A DNA stretch of 64,000 nucleotides from Eledone cirrhosa (Eukaryota), in NCBI GenBank assembly GCA_964016885.1, contig OZ024743.1, positions 160,952,001-161,016,000 of the forward strand. The letters are read 5' to 3'. The position numbers were made by a program, and so were the translations under genes. The notes beneath the pieces were generated by a model. It was given only the letters and a program-made list of their open reading frames with translations, did no database searches and was not told the DNA's origin. How positions within the stretch are numbered: position 1 is the first letter of the stretch; every line of letters begins with the position of its first letter. Positions 16,391 to 45,363 of this stretch are shown piece by piece.

Positions 16391-16479
16391 TACATACATA
16401 CATACATACATACATACATACATACATACATACATACATACATACATACATACATACATACATACATACATACATACAT
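16391..16479. repeat. (TACA)n tract at the 3' end of the RTE element
   Basis: Directly visible. Confidence 0.95.
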
Positions 16480-19400: not shown

Positions 19401-20110
19401 ACAATCACGGCCCACGCGAGCATTAAAATCTCCAAGAATGAAAATGTTGTCTGCTGCAGTCACTTTCCAGACAAGAGATTTTAATTCGTCATAAAAAGCC
19501 TGCTTTGCTTCATCAATGCATTCCATAGATGGTGCATAAGCACCAATCATGGTTGCATATCTTCCACCCTCTAGAGGAACTCTCACAGTGGTCAGTCTGT
19601 CACTAATGCCTGTCGGTAGCTCTTGGAGATGGTCTGTTATAACTGTTTTTATGGCAAAAGCGACACCAGCTTCCCTCCTTCCCTCCTTCCTTCCCCTCCA
19701 GAAAAACGTATATCCACCGGATTTCTCTGTGAAATGGCCCTCACCATGACGTCGAGTTTCTGAGAGGGCCACAACATCCATACATAACACCTGAGCTCCT
19801 TGGCAACCAATGCCGATCTTCTTTCAGGTTGCTGTACATTTGTTTCAATATCAAGCAAAGTACGCACATTCCAGCACCCAAAATTGAGTGGTTTGCACAC
19901 AGCAGACAGATGACGACAAGGCCCATCCTGCGGCGCCCTAGGGTACCTGCCGGGTCAGACCCTTTCACATGATGTTAGGTCACCAGTTGGTGCTACTGGT
20001 AACATGCATCCCAGTACAACCTGTACCATAGTCGGGTCGTTGGTGACTAAACTGGCAACCCCACCAAGGTTTCTTGGTGAGGGGGGTGACTTTGGAATCG
20101 TGCAGGACTA
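16480..20110 (-). mobile_element. RTE-clade LINE, near full length, decayed (APE endonuclease, RT, C2H2 fingers)
   Basis: CWNVRTLLD, VVALSETR, LGDFNARVG, WMHPGSKQWHLIDY, PESQSGFR, FVDLTKAFD, GVKQG, LLYADD, with frameshifts; the first ~130 bp are inverted. Confidence 0.93.
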
Positions 20111-22430: not shown

Positions 22431-22439
22431 AATTACATA

Positions 22440-23314
22440 ATTACGATATCTGATGAGGACTGCTACAGATACCTGGGGATAAATGAGAACATATCCTATA
22501 ATGGTATCTATAAGGAACGCGTAAGATGTCATCACAGTACTATTTATCTATGAGGCATGATGTAGTGGCCAAAACACTATACATTGCAATCCATAGAAAA
22601 GATAGCCCCGATAATAAACACATTAAAAGCTACAGCAATTTGGAAGATATACATATACATAATATGAAAGAGTACTGGTGGAATGTTCCACTAAAATCCC
22701 TAATAAAATGCAGGCATAACAGACCAGATATAATGATATGGGACAGGGAAAAGAAGGCATACACAGTAGTGGAAGTTAGCTGCCCAGCAATATAATATAA
22801 TATCAAAGATTAGCGAAAAGGAGAATATTTATGCAGAACTAATGAGAAATCTGCAGATACTCCACCCTGACTATACCTTCAGATTTATGCCTGTGATTAT
22901 TGGGGCACTGGGGTATGTTAGTAACTATCTCAATACAAATCTTGAGAAGCTAGGCTTCACAGAAACAGAAAGAACACGACTAGTTAGGACATTACAAGTA
23001 CAATCCATTAATGGAACAGTAAAAATATGTAAAACATTCCAACAATTCTGCATCTAATAACTGCATATACACATGTACAGATACAAAGCATATGCAAATT
23101 GCACACATTCAACTCAAAACATCCACATCCGCACATATAATAACATCCATACCTGCACACACACATGCATGAAGACATGCATACATATCTACCTAGTTGA
23201 TGTTGTTTAAATTCTAATGAGAGAGTATTGTGTCTATGTTAGAAACCTGCTCTCTCTCTCTGTTGGCAAAACAATTTGTGAAATTATAAAACCAGAAGAA
23301 TATACATACATACA
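22440..23314 (+). mobile_element. 5'-truncated R4-like RLE LINE (family 2), tandem copy
   Basis: RHDVVAK, HNRPDIMIWD, VVEVSCPA, MPVIIGALG; 3' UTR as in the neighbours; CATA tail. Confidence 0.88.
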
Positions 23315-25285
23315 CTGGGTGCCTTAATCTGTTCTTACTGGATCATTGTGCCACCTGTATAGATCACCCCACTAACAAATAAAATGATATAAGGAAAAAC
23401 AACAGAGAATAGCAGTAACATGACCGTGGTGTGGCTGGACTACAAGAAGGCTTTTGATGTGTACCTCATGGTAGATTATTAAGGCTTTACAGTAAGCCAA
23501 AGTCCCACAACCACTAGTAGCTGCTTTTTAACGCCTGACCAAGACTTTGTACACCAATTTGATCGTTAGGGGTGAGAAGGAGCAAATTGAGACAGATACT
23601 GAGGCATCTTTTAGGGTGATATCTTATCAGTGCTGCTCTTTGTCCTCTCAGTAAACTCACTATCATACCTACTCACAAAACAAAGTATTTATAGAAATGG
23701 GTCCAGAAATATCTCCCATCTTTTCTTTGTTGATGACCTGAACTTTTATAGACCAAATACCAACTATATCAAAAAAAAAGTGTACCTCATTACACAATTT
23801 TCTGCAGACATCAGAATTAAATTTGGTGAGTCTAAATGTGCATAGTTGACAGTAAAACGTGGAAGAGGTGTGCACTCCTCCAGAAATCTAGAGATGAACG
23901 GCTTGAGATTACAACATCTACAGTCAGGTGACAACTACAGATATCTTGGACAGGATGAGAATGTCAGATATGGAGGACCCATATATAAGGAGAAAACCAG
24001 AACTGCATATCTCAGGAGAGTAAGAAAATATGGTCATCAGAACTCTCAGCGTACAACAAATACATTGTCTATAATACTTATGCTGTGCCAATCCTAACTA
24101 ACATTTGACCTGCTGAACTGGTCATTGCAAGAACTAAGTGAGATGGATGTAAGAACTTGTAAGCTTCTCAGTGTTACTGGAAACTTTAACATCAATGGTG
24201 ATGTAGATAGACTTTACATCTCACGCAAGGAACGTGGCCGGAGTCTAAAATATATATTAACATCACATGAGACACAGTTAGTACAGTTAGTAACACTGAA
24301 GCAACATCTTCAACAGAAGAAAAAAGTCAGCAACCATCTTGCCCAGGTATAGGAGCATGAAAGAAATAATATTAGAATAGCCAATGATCTGGAGGAAAGA
24401 TATAGAATAAGGCCCGATTTAAATCTCTCTCCCAGAGAAATTGGAAGATCCTATTCAATGTTCGAACAAAATTTAAAAAATGGACCAATTTACAGAGAAA
24501 ATTGTGCATGGGTACCTGAGTCGAAAAACACAGACCATAGAAGGGATAACAAGTTTATGAGTTCCGACAAGTTTATGACATCCAACCTTGAAGGATATCT
24601 CTATGCATTACATTTTATGCAACATTCTAACGATTTTGCCAATTCGTCGCCCACTGAATTGATTAATGTAGAAAAAGCTCTACATACCAACATAACAATT
24701 TACAAAAGTATGTCCGCGAAATCTTAAGAAAGATATCACTAATGACAGAAAGAGTAAAAACTCTCTTGGATTCTTGACAGTTGTATTACGTCACATTTTG
24801 AAGCAAACGATATATATATGAAATATTCGATGAACTAAAGAAATAGTGAAACCTTTAAAACAGGAAGTTCCAATCTAAAATTTCGACTATATCACATTTT
24901 ATTTGTGGAAGACCTTACATAGGTGATCAGCAGCTGTCTAACATTGACTACCTATACGGCATGAAATTGTTGCTGAGGCAACATGCAATGCCATTACGCC
25001 GGGAGAACCACCATTGGATAAATATGAGTTAAATATTTGAATTTATGTATATTTATACATTCCAATACAACGACTATTGGTGAAATAATCATATCGAAGA
25101 TTCATTAACAGACCACATATAATATTTCCAACAAAACATCCATACACAGACCTTATATAATTATTTGAGAGAGAATACAAAATAACGTACAGTTGTGGAG
25201 ATCAATTGTCCAGTGGATGTGAATAATTCACAAGAAAAGAAACATTTATAATGAATTACTTCGAAATCTATAATTCCTCTACATA
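23315..25285 (+). mobile_element. Decayed R4-like LINE (RT to RLE)
   Basis: WLDYKKAFD, ISHLFFVDDL, FGESKCA, YRYLG, DVDRLYISRK, later NRPHII and VVEINCPVDVN. Confidence 0.8.
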
Positions 25286-25287
25286 GA

Positions 25288-25886
25288 ATATGTATGTTCT
25301 TCTGGTTTTATAATTTCACAAATGTTTGCCAATAGAGAGAGAGTCGGTTTCTAATATAGATACAAGACTCTCTCTCATTGGAATTTATACAACAACAACT
25401 AAGTAGGTATGTATGCCTGTCTGCATGCATGTGTGTGTGTGTGTGTGCAGGTATGGATGTTATTGTATGTGTGGATGTGGATGTTTTGAGTTGTATGTAT
25501 GCTTTGTATCTGTACATGTGTATGTGCAGTTATTAGATGCAGAATTTTTGGAATGTTTCACGTATTTTTACTGTTCCATTAATGGATTGTACTTTTAATT
25601 TCCAAACTAGTTGTGTTCTTTCTGTTCCTGTGAAGCCCAGCTTCTCAAGATTTGTGTTGAGGCAGTTACTAACATATCGCAGTGCCCCAATAATCACAGG
25701 CATAAATCTGGAGGTATAGTCAGGGTGGAGTATCTGCAGATTTCTCATTAGTTCTGCATACATATTCTCCTTTTTGCTAATCTTTGATATTATATTGGCA
25801 TCTGCTGGGCAGCTAATTTACACTACTGTGCATGCTTTCTTTTCCCTGCCCCATATCATTATATCTGGTCTGTTATGCCTGCACAT
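25288..25886 (-). mobile_element. 5'-truncated R4-like RLE LINE (family 2), reverse orientation
   Basis: Reverse complement of ~22705-23310 (YAELMRNLQILHPDY...FQKFCI). Confidence 0.88.
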
Positions 25887-25960
25887 TTATCCCCTCTATG
25901 CATGTAATGTATATACGTATGTTCGTATGTATGTATGTATGTATGTATGTATGTATGTGT

Positions 25961-28900
25961 CAAGTTGCTCAGGAGTGCTACTGGTAACATGTAACCCAGT
26001 ACTACATGTCTCATGGTTGGGTTGTCGGCGACTAAACCAGCAACCCCACCAAGCTTGCTTTGTGAGGAGGGTGATATTTAGACACTCTGCGGGATGAAAT
26101 AAAGACCCGGCAAAGGGCGGAGGAACTCAGCAAAGTCAACGGCCATCCAAATAGTACTTTTTTTTTTACCTGAAAGTGAAGGGCCCCCAGTTGTTGTCAC
26201 AACACATTTCTAGGAGAAGGAAACTCTGAAAAAACACCTGCGGCTTCGGAAGCATCCGATGATGTTGACCAGTTCTCCTTTTCGGGTAGTGTTTTCGATG
26301 TTCAGAGAGTGAGATCGGTCGCGTGCAAAGCCTTTCCCCACTAATAAAAAACCTTCAAATCACAGGCATCGCTTTTTCAGGATCTGTTACAGGTTCGTGT
26401 GGATGGCCGTAGCCTAAACTCTATGATGACAGAAGAGAACCTTTAAGTCAAAAGCAGTAAGGGCTCTTGAACATATTGTGAAGGGGTCTGGCCCGGCAGG
26501 TGTCAATGGCACCACAGCGTGGGCCCGGTCGTCATCCTACAACTGCAAAGAGGTTTAAACCTCTGAATATTGGATGCTGGATTTAAGAACTTTACTGGAT
26601 TCCCAGTCCAGTAAAACTCGCCCTGAAAGAAGATCTGCTTTGGTGTCGAGGGAACTCGATCGCTATAGCATGAACATCGTTGCTCTTTCAGAAACAAGAT
26701 TGGCAGGTGAGGGTCAATTCACAAAACAGAAGGGAGGATAAACCTTCAATTGTGGTGGTGGAGCAGAGGGTTGTAGGAGATAGGCAGGGATCGCATTTGC
26801 TGTCAGGAATGGAATCGTCTCAAAGCTGGAAAATCTTCCTTGTAGATTCAATGATCGGATAATGTCCATGAGAGACCCTATGATTCAAAACCGCTTTGTG
26901 ACTCTGATCAGTGTGTACGCTCCTACTATCTGTGCCAGTGATGATGAAAAACTAAGTTTCTACATGTCTTTGCGAGAGATCATCCATGGTATACCTGATG
27001 CAGACAAGATTGTCATCCTTGATGATTTTAATGCACGTGTTGGTAATGACTGGGAAGCTTGGAGTGTGATGGGCAAGCATGGAGTAGGTAAGTGCAATAA
27101 CAATGGCCTACCTCTGTTGCAGATGTGCACTGAGATGGATCTTGTTATTGGCAACACGCTCTTTCAGCAGAAAGACAAATATAAGACAACTTGGATGCAT
27201 CAAGGTTCCAAGAAGTGGCAACTTATTGACTTTGTTTTAACGACAAAACGTGATATCAGGGATATCACATTGGTTCGTGTATTGTGAGGCGCGGTATGTT
27301 GGACTGATCATCGTCTGGTGTGCGCCAAATTTCAATTTGTTGTGAAGTCCAAAGTAAGGGGGAAGAAGGTTGCACTTCCAAAACAATTAAACGTGGCTCG
27401 TCTGAAAATAGAGAAAGTCAGAGATGAGCTGTCGAAGTCCCTTGAGTTCATGGAATGTGAACACACGTGGGAATCATTGAAGAAAACCGTCTATGATGTT
27501 AGTGCTGAAGTTTTGGGTCATACCAATAGAAAGCATAAAGACTGGTTCGATGAAAATGATGCAGTGATCCAGACCTTGCTTGAAGAGAAACAAAAAGTCC
27601 TGACATCATTGTTGTGTGAGACACGTTCTGATAGGAGTGACCGGACCTTCAAGCAGATCAAGGCATGTGTGCAACATCGATTGACAGCCATATAGGATAC
27701 CAGGTGGAGCCAAAAGGCTGATGAAATCCAGAATGACTCAGATAGACATGATACAAAGCTCCAGTCTGCTGATACAAAGCTCCAGTCTGTACAAAGCTAC
27801 AGTCTGCTCAGGGAGGTGTATGATCCGACCGGTTCATAAATATCACCACTTCGCTCCCGGGACGGCACGGAATTGCTCAGAGATACGAAGGAAGTCTTGA
27901 TCAGGTGGCATGACCACTTTGATGAGCTTCTCAACCGACCATCAGATATTGATGATGAATTCATCCGGTCAATTCCATCCAGACCTACAAAGCTGGCAAT
28001 GGCTGATCCTCCTTCATTTTATGAGGTGGCGAAGGCCATTGCCAAATTAAACAGCACCAAGTCACCTTGAATGGATGGACTGAGTGCCGAGATTTTCAAG
28101 TGTGTTGGTGATAATTTCTTAAACCGCCTCACTGATCTCTTTGTGAATGTTTGGAATGAAGAAGATGTGCCACAGGATTGGAAAGATGCATTGATGGTGG
28201 TACTTTACAAAGGCGAGGGAGCCAAAGATGACTGTGGCAACTACAGAGGTATTTCACTGCTATCTGTGGCTGGGAAGATCTTGTGCAGAATATTGTTGGA
28301 CAGATTGATACAGCACATTGCTGTTGAGGTATTTCCTGATTTCCAATGTGGCTTTAGGAATGGCAGAGGCACTGTCGACATGATCTTCTCGGCCAAACAG
28401 CTTCAAGAGAAATGCATTGAGCAGCGCATGGACTTATACCAAGTTTTTGTCGATCTGACCAAAGCATTTGACACCGTTAATCGGAAGGCTTTGTGGGTTA
28501 TTTTGGAGAGATTGAGCTGTCCTGAAAAGTTTGTGAACATTCTGAAACTCTTCCACGATGACATGCAAGCATGGAGGAATGTTGGAGGTAAACTATCTGA
28601 GCCAATCTCGGTTGAAAATGGTGTCAAGCAGGGTGATATACCTGCACCAACTCACTGCCAACACTAAGGTACTGAGTACCTTGATCAGAGAATTTTTATA
28701 TGCAGATGATTGTAATCTCTTTGCACACTCCCAGAGTGACATGCAACACCTTATGGATTCTTTTTCCAAAGCGTGCAGTGCTTTGGGACTGACAATCAGT
28801 CTGAAGAAGACTGTCGTCATGTACCAGCCTGCTCCAAAGTTTTCAATGAACCCTCCATATACGGTCAAAAGCTAAAGGCTGCTGACACATTTGTGTATTT

Positions 28901-29764
28901 GGGCAGTACGCTGTGTGTGGCCTGCTATCTGGATGCAGAAGTTGGTCTACGTGTTAGTAAGGCAAGTGAGTCATTTGGAAGGATCAACGACCGTCTTTGG
29001 TGCAGGAGAGGAATCACAATGAGGACCAAGGTGAGAGTGTATGCTGCATGTGTACTGTCAGCTTTGCTGTATGCATGTGAGACATGGGTTGCCTACAAAC
29101 GACATATCCACAGACTGGAACGGTTTCACCAGCAGTGTCTCAGAAAGATGCCCGGTATCAAGTGGCAGAGCATGTGAGTGATGTTGAGGTCCTTGAGAGA
29201 AATGAGTGTCAGAGCATTGAGAGTATCATCCACCAACGGCGTTTGCGATGGACCGGACATCTCTGCAGAATGGAGGATGATCGAATCCCAAAACAACTCT
29301 TGTATGGCGAGCTTTGTGAGGGTAAGAGACCACTTCACAAGCCAAGGCTCCGATTCAAGGATTGTGTAAAGGACTAATTGAAAAAAACTGGTTTGATGGT
29401 GGCTGACTAGGAGATAGAAGCTCTTGAAAGAGAAACTTGGCGTGGAATGGTGAATGATGGGGTCCATAATTTTGAGGACAGACGCATAGAGCACGAGAAG
29501 ATCAAACGGGATGTGCGTAATGAATGCCCTGGTGTATCCCTCGAAACAATCGGTGTCTCCATTGAATTGAAGTGCCCTGAGTGTGGAAAAATTTGCTTGA
29601 GCAAATCTGGTATCAGGAGCCACAGTCGCAGCCATGTTCAAAGAGAAGCAGTGAACTATGATCTCCACGATGTTGTGAGGGTTCACGGGCAACCTGATGC
29701 ATGACCTCAAGCCAGAGAGATCCATAGTTATCGTCAGTGTGTGAAGGAGTGCAAGTCTCTAACA
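25961..29764 (+). mobile_element. RTE-clade LINE, near full length, decayed
   Basis: SVYAPT, DDFNARVG, NYRGISLLS, FVDLTKAFD, GVKQG, FLYADD, RIPKQLLYGEL, C2H2 finger CPECGKIC..HSRSH. There is an internal deletion near 28660. It starts after (TATG)n. Confidence 0.93.
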
Positions 29765-30049
29765 GCGTCACACATCTGAATCTGACAAGCGATTGCAATA
29801 CTCTTGACAGAGTTTGCAGCCATTATGTATGATTCTCTTTCTCTTAATTTCGAGTACATTTTTATCCGGCCGCCTTCCTGGTGGCAAGGTTGTTAAAGAA
29901 AAGAAATTGTCATCCCTTGTTCTTTTATTGCATCCTCTGATTTTTTTGTTTTTTTTACACGCAGAAATGCCCATTTGTACCGTCCTGTATTGTCCTGTAC
30001 TGTCCTTAATGTCTATTTTGTGTAAACCCATGTGGTTAATAAAGAGTGC
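29765..30049 (+). mobile_element. 3' end of a Tx1/L1-like element (5'-truncated)
   Basis: 29930-30050 is nearly identical to the 3' UTR at 45232-45347, with AATAAA and an (ATT)n tail. Confidence 0.8.
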
Positions 30050-30073
30050 ATTATTATTATTATTATTATTATT

Positions 30074-33000
30074 GTTCTTTGAGTCTCAGTCATTGATGTT
30101 ATTTAACTGGAAAGTTTGTTGAAATGAATATCAAGCCACTACCTGCAGCCTCAGATATTCAGGACGTATCGGAGGGTTCTTGCTGTTCCCAGCGAGCATG
30201 CCTTTTGAAGTGTTCCAAAAAGCGGCGCGGGACCAATTTTCTTTAACCATCCCTGGAAACTTTTTGAGATAGTACCTAGTGCGCCTATGACAATCGGGAC
30301 CACTTTGACTTCATGGCAGTTCCAAATCCTTTTTACCTCCCACTTTAAGTCCTGGTATCGGTTAATTTTCTCCATCTCCTTTTCTTGCACTCTCGTGTCA
30401 AATGGACAGGCTACATCTAAAATCAGGCACGATCTTTTTTTCTTGTCCAAAACCACCAGGTCAGGTCTATTGTGTTCCAGTTTCTTGTCCGTCTGTATCC
30501 TAAAATCCCACAGCACCTTCACCTGATCGTTTTCTATCACCGACTCTGGCTTATGCTCATACCACTTCTCAGAATGTGGTAAATTGTTTACTTTGCATAG
30601 GTGCCAGTGGATCACCCTGCCCATCACATCATGTCCCCAGCCTTTATAGTGAGTCTGCGCTAGGTGTTTACACTCGGATACGATGTGAACCACAGTCGCC
30701 TCTCTCTCTCTCTCTCTCTCCACAGATCCTACACAGTGGGCTAGCCTCCTCCTTGTAAATATGGTGTTTCAACCACTTCGTTTTGAGGGCCTGCTCTTGC
30801 GCAGCCATTAGCATTCCTTCTGTAGCCTTTTAAAGGTCTCCTCTTTTCAACCAGTTCCATGTCTGTGAATCTCTGAATTCAGTTTTCTCAAAGAAGGTAC
30901 TATGAAGGGATTTTTCATGAAGGTTGCTCTTTCTCCTTGTTGTTATTTCCTCCTTGGACATCCCCTGGTCTATTGTCCTCTCCTTCAGTACAATTCTGAG
31001 CATTGGCTCCCTACTATCAGTCAAGTATTTGTGTAGGTTGTTTTTTACTCCATCTGAACACAGTCCTCTATGCTGATAAGACCTCTTCCACCCTCAGATC
31101 TCCTTAAGTAGAGTCTATCGACATCACTCCTCTTGTGGAACATGTTGTAGATAGTCAATAGCTTCCTAGTCTTCCTATCCATTTCATTTTGTTCAGCAAC
31201 ATTCCATCTCAGAATTCCCGCACTGTACCTAATAATAGACACAGCTCGGGAATTTACTGCATTTATGGCATTCTTACTGTTCAGATGTGATTTCAATACG
31301 GTCCTTACTCTCCGAATGTATTCAGATCTTATCAATTTCTTCATTTTTTGTTCTTGATGTCATCAGCCTCCAGAACACCTAAATATTTGTATCCTTCTTC
31401 AGTATCAGTTTCCTTTATCATCTCACCTGTTGGTCCTTGGATTCCGTTGCTTCTGCTCAATTTACCCCTCCTCACCACATGGACTCCACACTTACTAATA
31501 CCAAATTGCATACATATATCATTGCTGAAAATACGGACAGTGTCAACAAGCACATCCAACTCCTTCTCACTCTTCCTGAAGAGCTTAAGATCGTCCATGA
31601 AGATGAGGTGATTGATGGTAAGCTCTCCCTTTCCTAACTTGTATCCTGCTCTCACTTTTCGCAGTATAATGGTCAGGGGCATCAGGGCAAGGATAAAGAA
31701 CAAAGGGGACAGACTATCTCCCTGGAAGATACCTCTCTTGATCTTCACGCCTCCCAAGGATTCTCCACCTGATGTTAACTCTGTTTTCCAGGACTTCATA
31801 CTTTTGCTCAACAACTGTCTGATGTTATCTGCCACCTTGAAGATCTCTAGGCTTTTGGTGATCCAAGAATGAGTTACCATGTCAAATCCCTTTTTGTAGT
31901 CTATCCATCCCATGGCAAGACCAGTGTGTCTCATCTTGCAATTCTTCATTACCATCTTATCAATAAGTAACTAGTCCTTTGTACCACGGGACTTCTTTCG
32001 GCATCCTTTCTGTTCGTCCGGTAACAAATTGTTTATGTGGAGGTGATGGTAGATTTCCACAGACACAATGCGTGTCAACAGTTTCCACATTACGGACAGA
32101 CGTGTGATAGGTCTATAGTTGGTAACATCATTAACCTTGATTCGGTGTTTCATTACCAGAAATGTGGTACCCTTTGTCAACCACTCTGGTACCTCGCCTG
32201 AGATCAAGCAGTCATTTAACATGCTTGTCAGTTTCGGGTTGAGGGATGTTATATTTTTAATCCAATACCCCTGCACACCATCTGGGCCTGGTGATTTCCA
32301 GTTGGTTAGTTTTCTGGCCTGCCCCTTAAGAGTTTCAACTGTGATACTCAAATCAGTTTGTTGGTGTTCCTGTTCACTAATCTCCTTTTGTACTGTCTCA
32401 ATACACACTGTCTGGTCATTATGTTCAACATCCTGCTCCCATATTCCTCTCCAGAATGTCTTAGTTTGTTCCGCCTCAGGGATCAAGTCGTTGCCTCTTT
32501 CTTTCCCTTCAAGCTGTCCAAACAATATCTTCTGGTTGTTGTCAAACATGCGGTTATGTCTATACTGACTGACTCTGCTCTCGTATCGCCTAATTTTTGC
32601 ACTCTATGCTATAATGCGTTGCTTCAGTTCCTCTATGATAATATTTAGCTTTTTCCTCCTAGTTTTGTACAGTATTTCCAGTCTATTTTAGTGTCTGTTT
32701 TTTAGTGTCCCATTCAGTAGGGACTCAAGCTTTCCAGTGTCAATTCTCATTTCCCTGATTTGACCATTCAGTCGTTTCTTCCACCAAGGTTCTGATCGTT
32801 CTTCTTTGTTGTTTCCTCTCGCTTTTGTGTCAAGTAATTTCCTCACCGCATTTGCTGTTGCTTTGAGGATATTGATGCACTGGTGAAGGCTCCTTGCCTC
32901 AAGGTATGGGATGACTTCGTTTAACTTAGCTGTTGTTTCTTTTAACTTGTTCCTGTCTACAAATCTTAGGTTCATAGGTTTCCCACTATCATTGTTCATT

Positions 33001-34670
33001 TCATCTACCACTAAGTTTAGGATATTACCAAATCTTGTTCTAGCTCGTCAGCATTCATTTCCTCAATGGCCGTATCTTTGTTGCAGGTATTATTTATTTC
33101 AGCATTCAGATCATTGTCTGCTTCGGATGGTTCCTCCGTTCTCTCAACCTCTTCACCTTCATTTCTCACTGGCTCGTTTGCCTGGCATACTCCACTCTCC
33201 ATTTCCAACCTAATCTCTCTGCTCAGTTCCTCCAGTTCCAGCTTGCTTATCCACCCATTATTTCTTATTACTCGAGCCTGCCCGGCCAATTTTTGTTCAT
33301 CTAATTTAAATAGACCAATCTCGTTCCAGATGTTATGCATCCGTTTCCTATAGCCTTTTTCCTTGGGGTTACTCTTCAGGTAACATTGCATAACAGTTCT
33401 AATCAATTATTTCGTCCAGTTGGTTCTGGTTCCTTTCCTTCTTCTTCCTCCAACACCAGCAGTATTTGGATGTCAGCCAAGTCCCTGCTGCTGAGCCAGG
33501 GAGCACCTGCTGGGTGAGAGTCTGTCACATGACATTACAGTCTCCACTTCACCGTTATTCGAACTGTTTAGGTTCCTCATTTAAACACTCATATCGAGGA
33601 TTGGTGAATGTATGGTTACATAACTACCGGTGATTTCATCACCCCGGTGATTTTAGCGTGGCACCATCACGCTGTAGATGAACATAAATAAACAAAGAAA
33701 TAGATAAAAACCTTAAAAAAACAAAAATAAACATGTTTTATTGTAATGTTTGAATGTCTGACTTAGTTTTTTTTTTTTTTTTTTTCCTTAGCGTTTTTCG
33801 TTTTACAAGGCCAGTAACATCGGTTACTAGTGTTGTTGTTGCTGCTGCTGCTAAGGGAAGTAGGGGTTGATGTGTTCAAAACTTTTGTAATTTGTGTTTT
33901 TATTGTTGCGTTTGCTTCTGTCTGTGTTCTGTTCTATAATTTTTCGACTATAATTTTTTCTATAATTTTTTTCCTTTCACCCCTACGGGGCCGACACTAC
34001 AAAGCACCTGCAACACACCGGGACAATTGCTGGCCCCGTGCCAAAAGCAGAAGCAATTATTATTATTATATTATAGTTTAGATTTGACATCGTTTAAAAT
34101 AAACATTTTGAGAGAGTTTAGAGATACAACATAATTATTTTGGTGTTGTTGTTGTTGTTGTTGTTAGCTGTTTGACCGAGTCACTAAGCCAGTCTATTTA
34201 TATCTTTTGATACCTTCCTCGCTTCTTTTCATGTGTAGCGGCACCACCACCCCTCTCTTAAGTAGTGAGGGAATACTGGCGGTAGCGATGATGCAGTGGT
34301 GGCGGTGGTGATGTGGCAGCAGTACTATAGGGATGGTGCTGGTTTATATTTGGCTAGATTTTTGTGGTAGTGGTGATGGTGATGGTGGCGGCGGCGGTGG
34401 TGGTGGTGCTGGTGGTGAAGTTATTTGGCTGTTGTTTTCTAGCCATTTTCTTTTCTGACTATAAATTTTCTGGTACAAAATTAAATATTAAATATTGGAG
34501 CCCTATGCCATAACGTGATGCGTTGCCACTTCCTGAGAGTTAAGACTGATATCTTACGTTCCATTTGTAATAAGAATTATTCTATCACAATTGTTTTAAA
34601 TATGTAAAAAATCAAACACTTACGGGAGCGATTCCATAATACAGTATCCACGATGTGCGTATCTTCCCTT
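30074..34670 (-). mobile_element. Full-length R4/Dong-like LINE copy 1 (RT + CCHC + RLE), multiple stops and frameshifts
   Basis: Colinear paralog of 34960-39489. WKSPGPDG, GIFQGDSLSPL, FMDDLK, NRPDLV, DVACPFD. Probable ATG near 33580. Both ends lie in (TAA)n. Confidence 0.93.
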
Positions 34671-34687
34671 ATTATTATTTTTATAGG

Positions 34688-34875
34688 GGGCGGTGGATTG
34701 GCAGTATCGGTAGAGGGTCGGACGCCATGCTTTCCAGCATAGTTACGTTCATTTACGATCTGAGTTCAAATCCCGCCGAGGTTGACTTTGCCTTTCATCC
34801 TTACGGGGTCGATAAAATAAAGTACCAGTAATGCACTGGATAATTGCTGGCCTTGTGCCTAAAGTAGAAACAATT
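34688..34875 (+). mobile_element. tRNA-derived SINE (main family) in (ATT)n
   Basis: A-box-like TGGCAGTATCGG, B-box GAGTTCAAATCC, core GCCTTTCATCCTTACGGGGTCGATAAAATAAAGTACCAG, ATT tail. Confidence 0.88.
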
Positions 34876-34893
34876 ATTTTTATTATTATTATT

Positions 34894-34914
34894 GTTCTTT
34901 GAGTTTCAGTCATT

Positions 34915-34915
<1 letters not shown>
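34894..34915 (-). mobile_element. 22-bp extreme 3' tip of the Dong-like family (abortive insertion)
   Basis: GTTCTTTGAGTTTCAGTCATTG matches 30074-30095 and lies between (ATT)n tracts. Confidence 0.65.
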
Positions 34916-34952
<37 letters not shown>

Positions 34953-34959
34953 GTTGTTA

Positions 34960-37900
34960 TTCCTTGAATCTCAGTCATTGATGTTGGTTAACTGGAAAGT
35001 CCGTTGGATTGAATATCAAGCCACTACCTGCAGCCTCAGATATTCAGGACGTATCGGAGGGTTCTTGCTGTTCCAAGCAAGCATGCCTTTTGAAGCGTTC
35101 CAAAAAGCGTGAAGGGGCCGATTTTCTTTAACCATCCCTGGAAACTTTTGGAGATAGTCCCCAGTGCGCCTATGACAATCGGGATCACTTTGACTTCATG
35201 GCAGTTCCAAATCCTTTTCACCTCCCACTTTAGGTCCTGGTATCGGTTAATTTTCTCCCTCTCCTTCTCTTGCACTCTCGTGTCGAACGGGCAGGCCACA
35301 TCCACAATCAGACACGATCTTTTTTCTTTGTCCACAACCACCAGGTCAGGTCTATTGTGTTCCAGTTTTTTGTCCGTCTGTATCCTAAAATCCCACAGCA
35401 CCTTCACCTGATTGTTCTCTATCACCGCCTCTGGCCTATGCTCATACCATTTCTCAGAATGTGGTAAATTGTTTACTTTGCACAGGTGCCAGTGGATCAC
35501 CCTGCCCATCACATCGTGTCTCCAGCCCTTATAGTGGGTCTGGGCTAGGTGTTTACACTCGGACACAATGTGAGCCACAGTCTCCTCTCTCTCTCCACAG
35601 ATCCTGCACAGTGGGCTAGCCTCCTCCTTGTAAATATGGTGCTTCAACCACTTCGTTTTGAGGGCCTGCTCCTGCGCAGCCATTAGCATTCCTTCTGTAG
35701 CCTTTTTGAGGTCCCCTCTTCTCAACCAGTTCCATGTCTGTGGATCTCTAAATTCAGTTTTCTCAAAGAAGGTACTATGAAGGGATTTTCCCTTAAGGCT
35801 GCTCTTCCTCCTTGATGTTATTTCCTCCTTGGACATCCCCTGGCCTACTGTCCCCTCCTTCAGTACAGTTCTGAGCATTGGCTCCTTACTATAGGTCACG
35901 TATTTGTATAGGTTGTTTTTCTCCATCTGAACACAGTCCTCTATGCTGATAAGACCTCTTCCACCCTCAGATCTCCTTAGGTAGAGTATATCGACATCAC
36001 TCCTCTTGTGGAACATGTTGTAGATAGCCAATAGCTTCCTAGTCTTCCTATCCATTTCTTTTTGTTCAGCAACATTCCATCTCAGAATTCCCGCACTGTA
36101 CCTAATAATAGACACAGCTCGGGAATTTACTGCGCTTATGGCATTTCTGCTGTTCAGATGTGACTTCAATACGCTCCTTACTCTCCGAATGTATTCAGTT
36201 CTTAACAATTCCTTCATTTTTTTGTTCTTTATGCCATCAGCCTCCAGAACGCCCAAATACTTGTATCCTTCCTCAGAGTCAATTTCCTTTATCATCTCAC
36301 CTGTTGGTATCTGGATCCCGTTACTTCTGCTCAACCTACCCCTCCTCATCACAATGACTCCACATTTACCAATACCAAACTGCATACATATATCACTGCT
36401 GAAAATACGGACAGTGTCAACAAGCACATCCAACTCCTTCTCACTTTTCCCGAAGAGCTTAAGATCGTCCATGAAGAGGAGGTGATTGATGGTAAGCTCT
36501 CCCCTTCCCAACTTGTATCCTGCTCTCACTTTTCGCAGCATAATGGTCAAGGGCATCAGGGCAAGGACAAACAACAGAGGGGATAGGCTATCTCCCTGGA
36601 AGATACCTCTCTTGATCTTCACGCTTCCCAAGGATACTCCAGTTGATGTCAACTCTGTCTCCCAGGACCCCATACTCCTGCCTAGCAACTGTCTGATGTT
36701 ATCTGCCACCCTGAAGATCTCCAGGCTTTTGGTGATCCAAGAATGAGGCACCATGTCAAATGCCTTTCTGTAGTCTATCCATCCCATGGCAAGATCAGTG
36801 TGTCTCCTCCTGCAATTCCCCATTACCATCTTATCAATAAGTAACTGGTCCTTTGTACCACGTGACTTCTTTCGGCATCCTTTCTGTTCGTCCGGTAACA
36901 AGTTGTTTGTGTGGAGGTGATGGTAGATTTCCTCAGACACAATGCTCGTCAACAGTTTCCACATTACGGACAGACATGTGATAGGTCTATAATTGGTAAC
37001 ATCATTACCCTTGATTCGGTCTTTCATTATCAGAACTGTGGTACCTTTTGTCAACCACTCTGGCACCTCACCCGACACCAAGCAGTCATTGAACATGGCC
37101 GTCAGCTTCGGGTGGAGGGATGTTAAATGTTTAATCCAATACCCCTGCACACCATCTGGGCCTGGTGATTTCCAGTTGGTTAGTTTTTTGGCCTGCCCCT
37201 TAAGAGTTTCAACTGTGATACTCAAATCAGTTTGTTGTTGTGCCTGCTCACCGATCTCCCTCTGTACTGTCTCAATCCACCCTGCCTGGACATTATGTCT
37301 AACATCCTGCTCCCATATTCCTCTCCAGAATGTTTTAGTTTGCCCCGCCCCAGGGATCAAGTCGTTGCCTCTTTCTTTCCCCTCAAGCTGTCCAAACAGC
37401 ATCTTCTGGTTGTTGTCGAACATGCGGTTCTGTTTATACTGACTGACTCTGTTCTCGTATCGCCTGATTTTTGCACTCTTTGCTACAATGCGTTGCTTCA
37501 GTTCCTCTATGATAATATTTAGCTTTTTCCTCCTAGTTTTGTATTTTATTTCCAGTCTATTTTTAGTGCCTATGTTTTTTAGTGTCCCATTCAGTAGTGA
37601 CTCAAGCTTTCCTATGTCATTTCTCATTTCCCCGATTTGCCCACTCAGTCGCTTCTTCCACCACGGCTCTGCTCTTTCTTGTCTGTTGTTTCCTCTCGCT
37701 TTTATACCAAGTAGTTTCCTCACCGTATTTGCTGTTGCTTTGAGGATATTGTTGCACTGGTGAAGGCTCCTCGCCTCAAGGTATGGGATGACTTTGTTTA
37801 CCTTAGCTGTTGTTTCTTTTAACTTTTTCCTGTCTACAAATCTTAGGTTCATAGGTCTCCCACTATCATTGTTCAATTCATCTACCACTAAATTTAGGAT

Positions 37901-39487
37901 GTCAACCGAATCTTGTCCTAGCCCGTCAGCATTCATCTCCTCAGTGGCCGTATCTCTGTTCCAGGTATTATTTATCTCAGTATTCAGATCATTGTCTGCT
38001 TCGGGTGGTTCCTCCGTTCTCTGGACCTCTTCACCTTCATTTCCCACTGGCTCGCTTGTCTGGCATACTACACCCGCCATCTCCAAGCCGTTCTATCTGC
38101 TGAGTTCCTCCAGTTCCAGCTCGCTTATCCACCCAATAGTTCTTATTACCCGAGCCTGCCCGGCCAATTTTTGTTCATCTAATTTAAATAAACCAATCTC
38201 GTTCCAGATGTTATGCATCCGTCTCCTGTAGCCCCTCTCCTTGGGGTTACTTTTCAGGTAACATTGCATAACAGTTCTATTCAATTCTTTCGTCCAGTTG
38301 GTTCTGGCCCCTTTCCTTCTTCTCCTTCCTCCAACATCAGCAGTATTTGGTTGACAGTCAGGTTCCTGCTGCTGAGCCAGGGGGCACCTGTTGGGTGAGA
38401 GTCTGTCACATGACGTTCTAGTCTCCATTTCACCGTTATTCGAACTGTTTATGTTCGATATTTAAACACTCTTATCGAGGATTGGCGAATGTATGGTTAC
38501 ATAGCCATCTGTGGATCCGCCATTCCACTTGGCCCTTGTGTGGCATTATCACCACGCTGTATACGAACACACATAAACAAACAAACACACAGGCAGAAAG
38601 GGCCCCAAAAATGAATAAGCATAAGTTTCATTGTAATGTAGTGTTCGAATGTCTGACTTAGTTTTTGTTTTTTAAGTTTTAGTTTTTCCCCCCTCTTCTC
38701 TGTCCGTCCGCCTGCTTCTCTCTTCATTCTTATTTTCTTTACGTTTTTTTTTTTGGGGGGGGGGGGGGGGGTTTGGTTTTGTTTTGGTTTTTCTCTATTT
38801 GTTTTTCTCGTTTTTTGCTGTTGTTGCTGTGCTGCTTTGGTTTTGTTGTTTGTTTTTTCTTTTTTCTTTTGAGTCTATCTATATATTTTGATGCCTTCCT
38901 CTTTTTTAGCAGTAGGGATTCTATAATGTGGTGGCAGCAGCCAGCTGAAAGAAGAGGAGAGACTGGCGGCGGTAGCGATACTGAGACAGTGGTGGTGGTG
39001 ATGTCGATACCGAGGCAGTGGTGGCGGTGATGTGACCGTATTGCTGTAGTGATGGTGCTGTAGCGGTGGTAGCAGTGAAGGAGTGAAGGGGTGGTGGCGG
39101 CGGTGATGGGATAATGGTGGTAATGATGGCCGTAGTGAGCGGTGGTGGTGAAAATGCCGTTATCTGGCTGTTGTGTTTAGTGTACATCTGGTGTTGGTGA
39201 GTTTGGCTGTTCTATATAGTGTAGACAGAGGAGAGGGGGGGGGGTCTTCTTCCATTTATAGCCATTTTCTTTTTTGGATATACAGTGTACAATACAAAGT
39301 TGAATATTTGAATATTTGAGCCTTATAACAATATATTTTGGGTCCGAATTTTTTGGGGCTCAAGCCGGGTGCTTTACGTAGCATTTGTACTAAGAGTTGT
39401 TATTTCACAAATGATTTAAATATGTTAAAAATTCAAAACTTACGGGAGCGATTTCATGACCTCCGCCACCTCGTGCGTCTTCTTCCC

Positions 39488-39489
<2 letters not shown>
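34960..39489 (-). mobile_element. Full-length R4/Dong-like LINE copy 2 inserted in (TAA)n
   Basis: Bounded by (ATT)n on both sides; its 5' terminus is homologous to that of copy 1 (34610-34670 vs 39430-39489). Confidence 0.95.
35036..38086 (-). CDS. R4/Dong-like polyprotein: reverse transcriptase, CCHC zinc knuckle, restriction-like endonuclease (1016 aa open; N-terminus continues in 38093-38428 across one frameshift)
   Basis: WKSPGPDG, YRPITCL, WIDYRKAFD, GIFQGDSLSP, HLLFMDDLK, YKYLG, CRIC..ETVAHIVSEC, RHD, NRPDLV, DVACPFD, KINRY. Confidence 0.93.
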   Translation of the reverse strand: MEMAGVVCQTSEPVGNEGEEVQRTEEPPEADNDLNTEINNTWNRDTATEEMNADGLGQDSVDILNLVVDELNNDSGRPMNLRFVDRKKLKETTAKVNKVIPYLEARSLHQCNNILKATANTVRKLLGIKARGNNRQERAEPWWKKRLSGQIGEMRNDIGKLESLLNGTLKNIGTKNRLEIKYKTRRKKLNIIIEELKQRIVAKSAKIRRYENRVSQYKQNRMFDNNQKMLFGQLEGKERGNDLIPGAGQTKTFWRGIWEQDVRHNVQAGWIETVQREIGEQAQQQTDLSITVETLKGQAKKLTNWKSPGPDGVQGYWIKHLTSLHPKLTAMFNDCLVSGEVPEWLTKGTTVLIMKDRIKGNDVTNYRPITCLSVMWKLLTSIVSEEIYHHLHTNNLLPDEQKGCRKKSRGTKDQLLIDKMVMGNCRRRHTDLAMGWIDYRKAFDMVPHSWITKSLEIFRVADNIRQLLGRSMGSWETELTSTGVSLGSVKIKRGIFQGDSLSPLLFVLALMPLTIMLRKVRAGYKLGRGELTINHLLFMDDLKLFGKSEKELDVLVDTVRIFSSDICMQFGIGKCGVIVMRRGRLSRSNGIQIPTGEMIKEIDSEEGYKYLGVLEADGIKNKKMKELLRTEYIRRVRSVLKSHLNSRNAISAVNSRAVSIIRYSAGILRWNVAEQKEMDRKTRKLLAIYNMFHKRSDVDILYLRRSEGGRGLISIEDCVQMEKNNLYKYVTYSKEPMLRTVLKEGTVGQGMSKEEITSRRKSSLKGKSLHSTFFEKTEFRDPQTWNWLRRGDLKKATEGMLMAAQEQALKTKWLKHHIYKEEASPLCRICGEREETVAHIVSECKHLAQTHYKGWRHDVMGRVIHWHLCKVNNLPHSEKWYEHRPEAVIENNQVKVLWDFRIQTDKKLEHNRPDLVVVDKEKRSCLIVDVACPFDTRVQEKEREKINRYQDLKWEVKRIWNCHEVKVIPIVIGALGTISKSFQGWLKKIGPFTLFGTLQKACLLGTARTLRYVLNI

Positions 39490-39552
<63 letters not shown>
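39488..39552. repeat. (ATT)n microsatellite between the head-to-head Dong and Tx1 elements
   Basis: Directly visible. Confidence 0.97.
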
Positions 39553-39759
39553 GGCGACCTACGTATTAAATCGTATTACCGTGAGCTCCGCAAAGGTTTG
39601 TTATTTTCAGTTGTTTAAAATTGCCATTTATGGAAATTTTTTTGTTAACTGTATATAAGTGCAGATACTTTGTTTTCTGAAAAGGACACTCAAAAAGATT
39701 GGGGCCAACATTTAAACTTTTACAATTATCAAACAAAAAAAAAATTTCTTTGAAAGATC

Positions 39760-41698
39760 ATGGCCGACCCACAGCTGAACCCAGTAGCTGAGAGCCTTCC
39801 TCACAAACTAACACCTCACACTGACACCACCATTGTAAATATTACTAGGTTTGCCAACACTAAAAATATAAGCAGTAGCAATATTTTAAATTTGTCTCAG
39901 GCAGACATTCATTTCCCGCCATTACCAATGACTGCAGGTGTTGAAGCCGCCACCCCACCACCACCACAGCGACAACAGAAACAAAAGAAAAAATAAATTA
40001 TCTCGTGATATCGAAATGAATTCAGCCAAAATGAACTCTTCCACACCGAACACGACTGACGCCACCACCACCACAACTGAAACTAAAATTAACAATAACA
40101 AAAATAACGATAACAACAAGAGCAACAATGACAATAAGAAGACCCTGTCTTTTGCCAGAGTAGCAAAAAAGTGCGAAACATTCCAGGTAACTCAGGAGGA
40201 ATTAGAAGAAGCCAAAAAAATGGTAAAGAAAGACGGGTACAGAGTCTCCCCCCCCCCTCGTCCCCCCCTCACCCCCACCTAATAAAATGGAGCATCGGCG
40301 CCTATGCACCGTGTCTTATCGGACGATTAATATAAAATCGCGCCGAGTGGAACGGGCATCCGAGACCCAAATCCAAAAAGCTTTGGGACATGTGTGGGCA
40401 ACAAAAACCCACATCAGACGTGGGCAGAAATATGGAACAGTAGACGTGTTCTTTGAAACATCACATCAGGCTAGAGAACACTCCATGGCCCCATTAAGAG
40501 GTGACGACTTCACACTCGTCCCAAGCTATTGTGGCCAAAGACTCGTGAAGATCAGGGTGACCCACGTTCCACTGGCCATCGAAATTCCCTGGCTAATGGC
40601 TGCCGTCCTCGCCGGCATCGAAGCCAACACCAAGATAATCGAAATAGCGAAAGAAAAGCAGGAGAACTGGTCCGGATCTGGGATGGAGCTCCTGATCCAA
40701 GCGGACCAAAAAAGCATTGAGGATATCCCAGAGGTAATAGACCTCACTGACGGTAGCCACCTCACGGTAATTGTCGAGGGTAAAAGGCCTAGGTGAGTCG
40801 TTTGTGGTGAAGGAACCCACCTAAGGGCTTTCTGCCCTCAGGCTAAAAGGTTGAGGTCACCTCTCTTACCCACCCCAGTGACTCAACCATCAACACCACC
40901 AGCAGCAGAAGTGGCAGCAACAACTGCATCAGCAACAACAGAAGCAACTGTAACAGTAACAACCCCAGCAACAGTAGCAAAACCAACACCACCACCACCC
41001 AACGCGCCAGAACTAGCACCAGCGCCTACACCATCCACCACGCCACAACCAAAACCAACGCCTGTGGAGGATTTTCCACTTCCCGACCTATCGCAATTGG
41101 AGACAGATTGTGACGACAGGAGTGGGAAACGGTATCAGAAAAAAAGAAAAACAAACCAAAGAAGAAAAATTCCCCTTCCTTCCCACTCCAAAAACATAAT
41201 ACAGAGGGAAACAAATAAACTATCAAAGAAAAAGGTTAGGACAGCTATGCCACCATCCACACCAGCATCACCAACAACCATCACCACAAACACCAACACC
41301 ATCACCATCATTAACCCCAACACCACCATCACCAACACCACAAAAGTCACCAAAAAGCGAAACAGAAACAAACCCACAACAAACGCAAACAAAACAAAAC
41401 AACCAAAACGATACAGACTACACAGCAATAAAGTTGAACAACAACCAATTATTACATCCAACACAACATGAGCACCACAGAAAAAGACTACACAACAAGC
41501 CAAAAGTTCACACTACCTCCACACATACAAATCAATCGCATGACACATAAACGTACACGACACTATAACAAAAATTCCCCCAAAACATCGGAGACTTCCG
41601 ACAAGCACTCTCCAGGAGGATTTATAAGGACATCCTTCCGGAAGAGGCCAGAAGCAGTGAAAAGGATGGAGAAACCATACTTCCTCTACGAGAAGTAA
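39760..41698 (+). pseudogene. Tx1 ORF1 (gag-like nucleic-acid-binding protein), fragmented
   Basis: LSFARVAK motif, RRM-like stretch, broken zinc knuckle R*VVCGEGTHLRAFCP at ~40791-40838, Pro/Thr-rich tail. Confidence 0.75.
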
Positions 41699-41737
41699 GG
41701 TAAGTGGTCTTTCCCATCTTTTCCACTCCATTTCAAC

Positions 41738-44700
41738 ATGACCTCACTCAGAATAGGCAGCTTAAATGCACGTGGCTTGGGGTCGTCATGGAAGCAAGGC
41801 CACCTGCTCAACGACCTCAGGTCACTACAAATAGATGTAGTAGCCATCAGCGAGACCAGAATCTCCGAAGCACGGGTCTTCGCACCGATCTTCGGCGATT
41901 ACGATGTGTACGCATCTCCCACCCGTCCTGGATCGGGGGGAGGAGTTGCTGTGTTTTTCGGAGAGGTTTGGATCTCGCCATACGGGCCATCTTCCTGGAC
42001 CCAGAGGGTAAGTTGGTGGTGCTGGACGTGACCAGCGGAGACGGGAAAGCTTTCAGGCTAGTGGCCGTCTATGGCCCGACAGGAGCAGGGCGGCCTGATT
42101 TCTTCCGGCGTCTGGAGACCTTTCTTTAGTGTTAGTGGGCGACTGGAACGGGATCTTAGATGCACGCTGGGATTGTGTGGGATTAGCGGATAGGGGAGGA
42201 GGGTGCAAGAGCCTTACCAACCTGCTCAGGCGTTTTGAACTGTCTGACAGGTACCGATTGGATTTCCCGAACCTGCCAGTGTGGACTTGGACAAATATCA
42301 TCGGGTCATCCAGATAGAGTATTTTGTAGGTAAATAGATAGGTCTAGCATAGGCTATCCACAATTCAAGATAGTCAGCTACACGGACCACAAATTCGTGA
42401 TCTGTGTGCTTGACTTAGATAGGCTTCATAGACGAGGACCCCGCTACTGGAAGCTAAACGCGTGCTTACCAGCGCGCAAGGCCTACAGAGACCGGATTAG
42501 CGAACTAGTTAAGCCGACGTTGACGGGGGCCATCGTCAACAACAAGTGGTGGTTTGCTCAGAAAAGAGCGATTAGAATAGAGTCCATTAGGTTTAGTAAG
42601 GCTTTAGCAATAGAGAAAAATAGAGCAGAGGGAGAACTAGTTAGAAAATTAGACGAGGCGCTCAGCAAAGGTATCGCGAACGACGTACATGCGGCGAAAT
42701 TGGCCCTTGACCAATTCTTCAATACAAAGCACGAAGGCTACGTTGTCAGAGCTAGGGTGCGTGCTCTCAGACACGAGGGGACGAAAGCCGTTCAATGGGC
42801 CCGAGTGGCGGAGGCGCGTCGTGGCAACAAAGCCACGATCCGGTCTTTGGTGGACCACGACGGGCGCATGCTACACGATCCCGGGCAAATGTGTGAAGCT
42901 TTTCAGCGACACTTCGCGCAACTGCTCGGGGGCAGCGGCGAGCCGGATCGAGGGATGGACTTTAGTGTCTACCTCGACGGACTGCCGCAGCTCTCGGCCA
43001 CTGAGACGGAGTGTTACTAAAAGCCGATAACAGCCGCTGAAGTACGGGAGGCAATGACTGGCTGCACAAGGGATAAATCGCCTGGTTTGGATGGTCTGCC
43101 CTATGAACTTTACGTACAAATGCCAGACTTGTTCGGGGGCCTCTTGGCGATGTCTACTGCAACTGGCAACAGAATGGGAGAATTCCCAGCTCTGTGAGCC
43201 GAGGAGCTGTGGCGCTGCTGAGAAAGGATCCGAACAAGGGGGATAACATAGATAATTTTAGGCCGATAACTCTGCTAAACACAGAGTTCAAGATTTTGGC
43301 CAAGGTGTTAGCAAAGAGGTTGACGCTTGTCGTTGGTGGTCTGGTGGGAGAGGCACAGACATGCGCCATTCCCGACAGATCCATACACAACAACCTCCAC
43401 CTCATGCGATACATCGTAGAGAGGGTAGCTAGGGAACCTGGCACAGGTGGGTCCTTGATCAATTTAGATCAGTCGAAAGCTTTCGATAGGGTCGACCATC
43501 GTTACCTAGCGGCAGTACTGAGGGCGGCTGGCTTTGGGCCCGTCTTCAGAGGCTGGATCGCTGCCATGCACAGCGACATCTGCTCTGTGGTGAGAGTGAA
43601 CGGTCACCTTTCGCAACCGTTCAACATCATACGCTTGGTCCGCCAAAGATGTCCTCCTCTCGTCCCTCTTGTACGTATTGACTCTCGAGCCATTACTGCA
43701 CAAACTGGAGACGTTGAGGGGGGAGGGGGGGCGGTCCCGCGCAAACTAGGATGCGGAAGATCCGTGTCAGCATATGCGGACGATGTCACTGTACTTATGT
43801 CGAACGCCAAACACATCGAGGCGATCGGCACTACACTAAAAGAATACGAAGCGGTGACAGGAGCAATGATCAACCAGTAAAAGTCAGTGGGCCTGCAGCT
43901 CCGCACCTGGAGAGGCAGGTCCATGCCGTCCAACAGCGTCGTCGGGCGCTGGACGGACGGACCGGTTAAATTGCTTGGGATCTGGTTCGGTCCGGATCTC
44001 CAGACGGACAAAAACTGGGACGAGGTGATGATCAGGGTGGCTTCTCTCACCCTGAAAGGTCGAGCGGAGGTGGCTAACGCGTACATCTCGTCCGTCATCT
44101 ACTACCGCCTGACCGTCGTACCTTGTCCTAAGCCCCGCCTGACTGCGCTGGAGCGTTTGCTCTTTCGCTTTTTGTGGAAGGGACGCGCTCCGATGGCTAG
44201 GCGGTCCATCTGCTGTCAACACCCGCTACGTGGAGGGCTGGGATGCGCAGACACGCGCTCAGGCTACGACATCTCCACCTCTTCCTCGACGGTGATCGGG
44301 TGTGGTCGCCGTTTGCTAGACTCTTCTTTCCCAGCTCGTCTCCTTGACGGAGCTGCAGTCCTGGGTCAAGCGAAGACCGAGAGGGAGCGCTTGGAGACTG
44401 GAATGTCTTCAGGCGCTCACAGCCCTCGACCAATCGGGCAATGTGATCGGTGGAAACTCCACCTTTGCGTTCTATAGAGGATTAATGGAGGAGAAGAGCG
44501 ACGACGTACTTGGGGAAACTCTAGGCGTCGACGAAAATCAACTAGCCAAAATCTTCGGATGAACTTTCGGGCCGGGGCCTATGGACAATTTCCAGAAATC
44601 CCTGGCCTGGCAGTGCTACCAAGGAGCTTTGCCAGTTCGGGATAAACTCTACAGGCATGGAGGTGCCGTCAGCCGGGAATGTCCGAGATGCGCGCAGGGC

Positions 44701-45096
44701 GACGAAACCGTCCTGCACGCACTCGTCCAGTGTCCGAGCATTGCTGACTTGTGGGTTTATGTCGAACACCTGCTGTCGCGTGTAGGACGGATCCAGCTAT
44801 CAGCTGAGTCCATCGTGAGGATTGCCCCGCCCTCTTCCTTTAGCCGGGAAGGACAGGCAGTTTTTATCTGTCTGGTGGCCATGGCGAAAGAGATAGTATG
44901 GTGGACACGTTTGAAAGGGCTGAAGACGAGCACTTACCTTTTCGGTGATGCCCTGATTAACTTTTTCAAATTTCATTTGAAAAGGAAAATCAGGGTAGAA
45001 AGGGAAATGCTCTCTTCCCAGCATTTTGTTGAAAGATGGGTGAGAGACGCAAGAATGGCCCGAGAGAATGGGCCTACTCTGAGTATGTGTTTGTAA
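41738..45096 (+). pseudogene. Tx1 ORF2 (APE endonuclease, RT, C-terminal Cys/His domain), frameshifted
   Basis: IGSLNARGL, AISETR, VGDWN, YTDHK, YWKLN, KSPGLDGLPYE, FRPITLLN, LDQSKAFDRVDH, AYADDV, CPRC..ETVLHALVQCP. Confidence 0.92.
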
Positions 45097-45363
45097 ATTA
45101 AAGGTGGAAAACTGGGAGAGGGCACTTGCCCTGGTGGTCAGGGTCACTGTGGTTTTTTAATGGGCTTTCTCCATGAATGTCCCTCGGAAGTCTCCCCCCT
45201 ATTGGGGAATTTTTTCTTTGTTCTATTATTACATCCTCTGTTTCTTGTTTTTTATACGCAGAAATGCCCATTTGTATCGTCCTGTACTGTCCTGTACTGT
45301 CCTTAATGTCTACTTTATGGAAACCCTTGTGGTTAATAAAGAAAGCATTATTATTATTATTAT

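Follow-up and report, generated by a model that had tools for sequence, protein, structure and literature searches.

Stepwise A>G drift in the active lineage of a Dong-like retrotransposon family of Eledone cirrhosa

We analyzed a window of 64,000 nucleotides of the Eledone cirrhosa genome (contig OZ024743.1, positions 160,952,001 to 161,016,000), which holds a young copy of a retrotransposon family whose active lineage drifts directionally from A to G on its sense strand, gaining G a few sites at a time. The extra G bases of this lineage are probably copying errors of its own reverse transcriptase (RT), made in each cycle, although we hold this with modest confidence; rare host RNA editing possibly acted as a helper. 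Its many copies densely record how the retrotransposon itself mutates, a process that can be told apart cleanly from genomic decay.

The focal element

The features needed below are given in window coordinates.

34916..39487, minus strand: full-length Dong-like non-LTR retrotransposon of a young subfamily ("F-type"); ends approximate
35036..38428, minus strand: single ORF of 1,130 codons, with an RT domain, a CCHC knuckle and a PD-(D/E)XK-type endonuclease motif
about 36647..36680, minus strand: seven clustered A>G sites, acquired in nested steps (ladder thresholds 0.08-0.73)
38093..38095, minus strand: private nonsense codon TAG of the focal copy, cutting the frame at codon 112
38429..39487, minus strand: 5' untranslated region (UTR); along the ladder about 260 nt at its end likewise acquire A>G and T>C
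39488..39552, minus strand: (TAA)n microsatellite at the 5' junction, the putative target
34873..34961, minus strand: (TAA)n tail and target run, including a short 3'-end fragment of another copy
30050..34684, minus strand: older decayed copy of the same family ("P"), with stops and frameshifts

The 5' end of the focal copy (F) adjoins a TAA run, and its 3' end passes into a TAA tail. Two motifs visible in its translation we take to be a C-terminal CCHC knuckle and a restriction-like endonuclease. Profile searches identified the RT domain (RVT_1, PF00078, E=2.6e-23), whose closest solved proteins are those of R2 (E=2e-31), with L1 at 2e-14; in the same ORF they gave no match to the APE family, and the endonuclease motif was confirmed by no profile. 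There are 843 homologues, and the best 120 of these 843, together with 7 clusters, carry no informative names. A scan of 33400-39700 gave no Rfam match to an HDV-like 5' ribozyme at E<=1. Among the family copies, TAA runs were found at 49 of 58 truncated 5' junctions and at 84 of 85 3' ends, against a background of 4 in 712 windows, and of the 75 spanning copies, 12 keep 1,125 or more codons open.

This is probably a Dong-like (R4-clade-like) retrotransposon, as the first-pass annotation had proposed, of the non-LTR type and targeting TAA: the RT domain, the single ORF, the endonuclease motif and the insertion into TAA all fit, the assignment being made by target, ORF and motifs rather than by a tree with named references. 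The annotation had also expected the ORF to stay open; that of the focal copy is interrupted by one private stop, the TAG at 38093-38095, which is absent from 16 of the 16 young copies that cover it. The start codon has apparently been relocated: older classes carry an in-frame ATG 11 codons upstream (window 38461-38426, minus strand), lost at 38459 following the origin of a new ATG at 38428. Copies of the family occur head to tail in TAA runs, as P and F do in window 30050-39552; two others (L002 and L003) lie 4.6 kb apart on contig C222.

An age-ordered ladder of copies

F and P align over about 3.7 kb with 90% identity. The sense-strand A>G excess of F over this paralog, first noticed by eye, is real. 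The original count for 36645-36824 was reproduced exactly (180 columns, of which 21 differ: 15 by A>G, 2 by G>A and 4 by other changes), and over the 3,553 aligned columns we counted A>G at 112 of 1,265 A, G>A at 38 of 901 G, T>C at 44 of 774 T and C>T at 18 of 613 C, with A>G exceeding T>C per base (p=0.01). The 107 pairwise A>G sites break down into 72 fixed differences that separate the age classes, 12 that became fixed earlier, 20 at which P underwent private G>A decay and 3 that belong to F alone. G had been taken as the derived state, which holds for 87 of the 107 sites and fails for the 20 that decayed in the paralog. The latter include both sites (37923 and 37917) of a supposed recoding of ELEQD to GLGQD, as well as the second G (36819) of a supposed double change from AAG to GGG. 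P differs from its own class majority at 115 of 3,502 columns, 32 of them G>A.

The G set is shared. An 801-nt query from the focal copy had 845 candidates, and 40 of 40 scored genomic matches were 99-100% identical; 29 other young copies carry G at 87-98% of the A>G sites of F. The set therefore marks a lineage, a sharing that the annotation would have attributed to an edited master lineage, and G is the majority state of the young subfamily at these sites, which by the annotation's own terms refutes its view of this copy as a fossil of edited RNA. In two independent runs (X4 and X9), listed contigs match stretches of 147-477 nt with 0-6 differences, other contigs among those listed differing more from the focal sequence. 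Since 29 genomic copies and these contigs carry G, the G bases are not an assembly artefact. Runs X1-X15, coded as 12 different organisms, contain 0.21-0.77 of the element's words; these words, and the near-identical contigs of X4 and X9, could be due to close relatives, mixed samples or horizontal spread.

For sampling neutral to state, we searched with a motif that left all seven positions of the densest cluster degenerate. It had 3,773 genomic matches, so that the family has at least that many. From the first 100 matches listed, 90 copies were projected: 19 all-A, 21 one-G, 35 all-G, and 15 intermediate or back-mutated at the seven sites; the matches listed but not fetched were all all-G. 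A second motif found 227 intermediates at this cluster genome-wide, 100 of them among the matches listed, and the resulting ladder sample is enriched for intermediates by design. In total 237 copies were used, of which 208 form one ladder and 29 were added to define an older class; this class ("O") has 27 members, 4 of them from the earlier copy set.

Position on the ladder tracks private divergence (rho -0.85, n=90 copies), and thus G is the young state; the A-state classes are older, with 3.0% divergence from the class majority vs 0.9%. Fixed changes between the oldest and the youngest class occur at 267 of 3,475 sites and comprise 114 A>G, 43 T>C, 40 G>A, 16 C>T and 54 transversions; the class of P is not exactly on the trunk, and this direct count is the cleaner one. 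In the earlier O-to-P segment (105 changes) A>G was again the largest class with 39, followed by T>C 20, G>A 19 and C>T 9. When the ladder was divided into five time bins, A>G was a large class in all of them, being tied with G>A in the first and below transversions in the last. Along the ladder, the A content of the ORF falls from 36.0 to 33.7% and G rises from 25.9 to 28.0%. The 5' UTR, whose upstream columns align poorly, differs between class majorities by 20 A>G, 15 T>C, 14 G>A and 4 C>T; since it drifts in the same way, codons are not required. In many copies (L018, L014, L088, L193, L211 and others) blocks hundreds of bases long come from different ladder stages, a mosaic structure that suggests template switching or gene conversion between copies.

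Sources of the extra changes

The 6,408 changes on terminal branches have a spectrum resembling that of genomic decay, with 1,484 G>A, 941 C>T, 743 A>G and 364 T>C; per base, G>A and C>T are equal. We defined a genomic clock as the difference in private rate between old and young copies, and compared it with the synonymous changes of the trunk from P-type to F-type. The trunk rate exceeds the clock 28.6-fold for A>G, 19.8-fold for T>C, 2.5-fold for G>A and 2.0-fold for C>T; the first two classes are therefore strongly accelerated in the transposing lineage. The protein is under purifying selection, with pN/pS of 0.40 for A>G and 0.20 for T>C.

Among private changes, sense A>G is only slightly in excess (3.51 vs 2.70 per 1,000, p=1e-4); it has no 5' context, and copies do not carry it in clusters (22 pairs lie within 20 nt, 19.4 being expected). 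Recurrence of G ahead of its fixation is above baseline (23.3 per 1,000 for A>G), and so are the corresponding rates for T>C (12.8) and transversions (7.7), so that leakage by recombination is inseparable from hot spots. AAG>AAA is a specific reverse hot spot: it changed 10 of 53 codons, compared with 5 of 143 when five further codons ending in G are pooled, as would be expected from polymerase slippage. Several changes in GAG context yield glycine codons.

The drift is specific to the family. In an L1-like family (window 43100-43900) we found no A>G bias among 55 differences, which include 16 G>A, 14 C>T, 5 A>G and 5 T>C (A>G share against that of the Dong-like family, p=1e-6); this control used 29 copies, 11 younger and 15 older with 3 intermediate ones omitted, and its polarity is weaker. 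An RTE-like family was unsuitable as a control, its 29 copies not falling into subfamilies. The specificity of the drift is compatible with extra cycles as well as with a different enzyme, and it speaks against a host effect acting on all elements alike. Transcription-coupled DNA damage, which prefers a 3' T, was rejected because 3' T is the lowest class.

RT error, our preferred reading, would place the extra changes in the RNA-to-DNA cycle. A C incorporated across from template A while the first strand is made would appear as sense A>G, and a G across from U, or an error in the second strand, as T>C. Copies also swap segments, which produces the mosaics. We estimate that, at the R2 error rate, the roughly 0.2 synonymous changes per site would take about a thousand serial cycles. 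Since editing of mRNA by ADAR yields A>G only, T>C needs another source, and RT error is the simplest one and could yield both classes. In the available text of PMC11331410, errors of R2-RT and L1-RT in vitro are mostly transitions, as they are here; thymine is the most substituted base (47% for R2-RT, 40% for L1-RT), cytosine the most misincorporated, thymine-to-cytosine the largest class, and the rates (1.17e-4 substitutions per base for R2 RT, 2.2e-4 for L1 RT) sufficient. Read on the new cDNA strand, these T-to-C errors appear to correspond to sense A>G, although the strand convention is not explicit there. The spectra differ from our case in coming from R2 and L1 enzymes, none existing for a Dong enzyme, and in that no neighbour context is reported in that text. 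Against RT error stands the depletion of 5' G at synonymous sites, which is an ADAR signature and a context documented nowhere for this enzyme.

That depletion underlies a more tentative reading, in which rare A-to-I edits, about one per several cycles, were reverse-transcribed and account for much of A>G, with RT errors giving T>C. Synonymous A>G changes from oldest to youngest class occurred at 33 of 121 sites after A, 16 of 50 after T (49 of 171 for the two combined), 4 of 74 after G and 4 of 60 after C, and the same 5' context recurs in both trunk segments and in side branches. It matches the motif of invertebrate ADARs, which in the available part of PMC5625713 avoid 5' G and weakly prefer 3' G. 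AGA>AGG occurred at only 1 of 35 codons though four host actins use AGG 16 times and AGA 12, and GAA>GAG at 14 of 44 though the actins prefer GAA (77 to 27); both counts run against actin codon use, so host codon use fails to explain the context. Three of six adjacent AA pairs resolve, all as AA>AG>GG, the count of one pair being inflated by the second, intermediate-finding motif. Lysine was replaced by arginine 17 times and the reverse happened once. Edited mRNA can, moreover, be retrotransposed by L1 (3 of 235 pseudogene insertions in the accessible portion of PMC11702581).

Other observations, however, argue against ADAR. The 5' G depletion that the annotation had suggested as an ADAR mark holds at synonymous sites and is missing at first codon positions, whose 5' base does not depend on the amino acid (9 of 143 after G, 13 of 205 after A/T; p=0.001 relative to the synonymous ratio). 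It is missing as well in private A>G changes (OR 1.08, p=0.32), a test that excluded lineage-variable sites and could thereby have removed hot spots. Clustering, suggested as another mark, exists locally in the pairwise comparison but is gone at synonymous sites (p=0.15), and none of the 208 copies has a private cluster. There is no clear sign that neighbouring changes were acquired together (12 of 68 vs 14 of 127 and 8 of 77), local predicted pairing is equal at changed and unchanged A (0.533 vs 0.533), and T>C is left unexplained. The mirrored context of T>C is weak (p=0.03 for 3' A/T vs G/C, p=0.65 when compared with C alone). With T>C as the baseline for RT error, roughly a third of A>G would come from editing (57 of 305 vs 33 of 276). 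On the editing reading, host ADAR would be a heritable mutagen of an autonomous retrotransposon, its edits fixed singly and about 9% of adenosines rewritten, a scenario that we consider conceivable but doubtful.

We find it improbable that A>G and T>C were fixed by selection among source copies favouring a transcript poorer in A, or by GC-biased conversion as copies frequently exchange segments. Mosaic copies are common, A falls and G rises in the ORF, and GGG (0 of 80 Gly) and NCG are avoided in the host actins, a preference that could filter sites with 5' G or 5' C. But among synonymous transversions weak-to-strong changes are not favoured (8 of 320 vs 4 of 199, p=1), which disfavours GC-biased conversion; A>G exceeds T>C per base (p=0.009), contrary to strand-symmetric conversion; G>A and C>T are not slowed; and the Glu and Val changes oppose host codon preference.

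The first-pass annotation had read the focal copy as the fossil of a hyperedited RNA. Despite the pairwise A>G excess and the local clusters, a single ADAR-hyperedited RNA that was retrotransposed, yielding this copy or founding the subfamily in one step, is very hard to sustain. Only 3 of 107 sites are private, and 79 A>G changes are spread over 34 ladder thresholds, with at most 9 at any one, which refutes it. Gains are stepwise, with 227 genomic intermediates at the densest cluster, nested even among its seven sites (36650-36678); to treat all intermediates as recombinants of the end states is implausible given nested single-base steps within 30 nt. A pN/pS of 0.40 also speaks against it, A>G is far from the sole change (114 of 267, with 43 T>C and 40 G>A), and T>C is accelerated almost as much. 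Last, an ancestral G with G>A decay of the paralog, or an origin of the G bases in assembly errors, can be practically dismissed: the 20 sites of private G>A in P fit the former, which the greater age of the A-state classes refutes for the other 87, and the G state is present in independent runs.

The family provides an in vivo RNA-to-DNA substitution spectrum for an endonuclease class related to the R2 proteins used in gene insertion. If RT error is the source, the result is useful but modest. If ADAR supplies the A>G excess, there would be a direct path from RNA editing to inherited sequence change; such mutagenesis would recode the protein (K>R, glycine gains) and shift base composition, its steps preserved in thousands of copies. 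The family also opens to testing a standing question, whether in the course of evolution edits made in RNA return to the DNA of the germline.

Known systems and neighbouring elements

Mammalian L1 and Alu subfamilies evolve through a single master lineage. Our ladder resembles them in its age-ordered, nested diagnostic changes and its mosaics, and differs in a strand-directional drift of A>G and T>C at 20-29 times the genomic clock. No report of stepwise A>G drift in a LINE master lineage was found in the open-access literature searched, and the available part of bioRxiv 10.1101/2022.05.18.492429 holds nothing on substitutions inside insertions. Dong, in the accessible texts, targets TAA microsatellites (PMC3812793) and belongs to the R4 lineage (PMC3774820); the elements of Bombyx, Anopheles and Biomphalaria share with ours the TAA target and the single ORF with RT and C-terminal endonuclease motif, whereas here there are at least 3,773 dispersed matches, a dense age ladder and no ribozyme match found. 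As far as the available text of PMC11702581 goes, L1-mediated retrotransposition of ADAR-edited mRNA leaves private clusters in inverted Alu repeats; edited RNA can thus enter the genome, but in our family the changes are inherited singly and no private clusters were found. DNA editing of retroelements by APOBEC, according to the accessible part of PMC2873906, gives G>A clusters in single copies, which is likewise a strand-biased excess in a retroelement, in contrast to the stepwise A>G of an active lineage here.

The window contains other elements. At 21400-25900 there are decayed remnants of a distant R4-like family, with about 30% protein identity, that are in part duplicated and inverted. 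Two LINE copies, which we presume to be of the RTE clade, lie in opposite orientation at 16200-20000 (minus strand) and 26200-29800 (plus strand); they are about 67-85% alike in pieces, and the second has 805 genomic candidates. At 40200-45100 (plus strand) there is a GC-rich L1-like element with RT and zf-RVT domains and 4,817 candidates, of which a younger subfamily exists elsewhere. Finally, one locus (L305) carries an uninterrupted, divergent actin-like ORF of 370 codons, possibly a retrocopy; the four conventional actins differ from it in that their profile matches begin at position 43.
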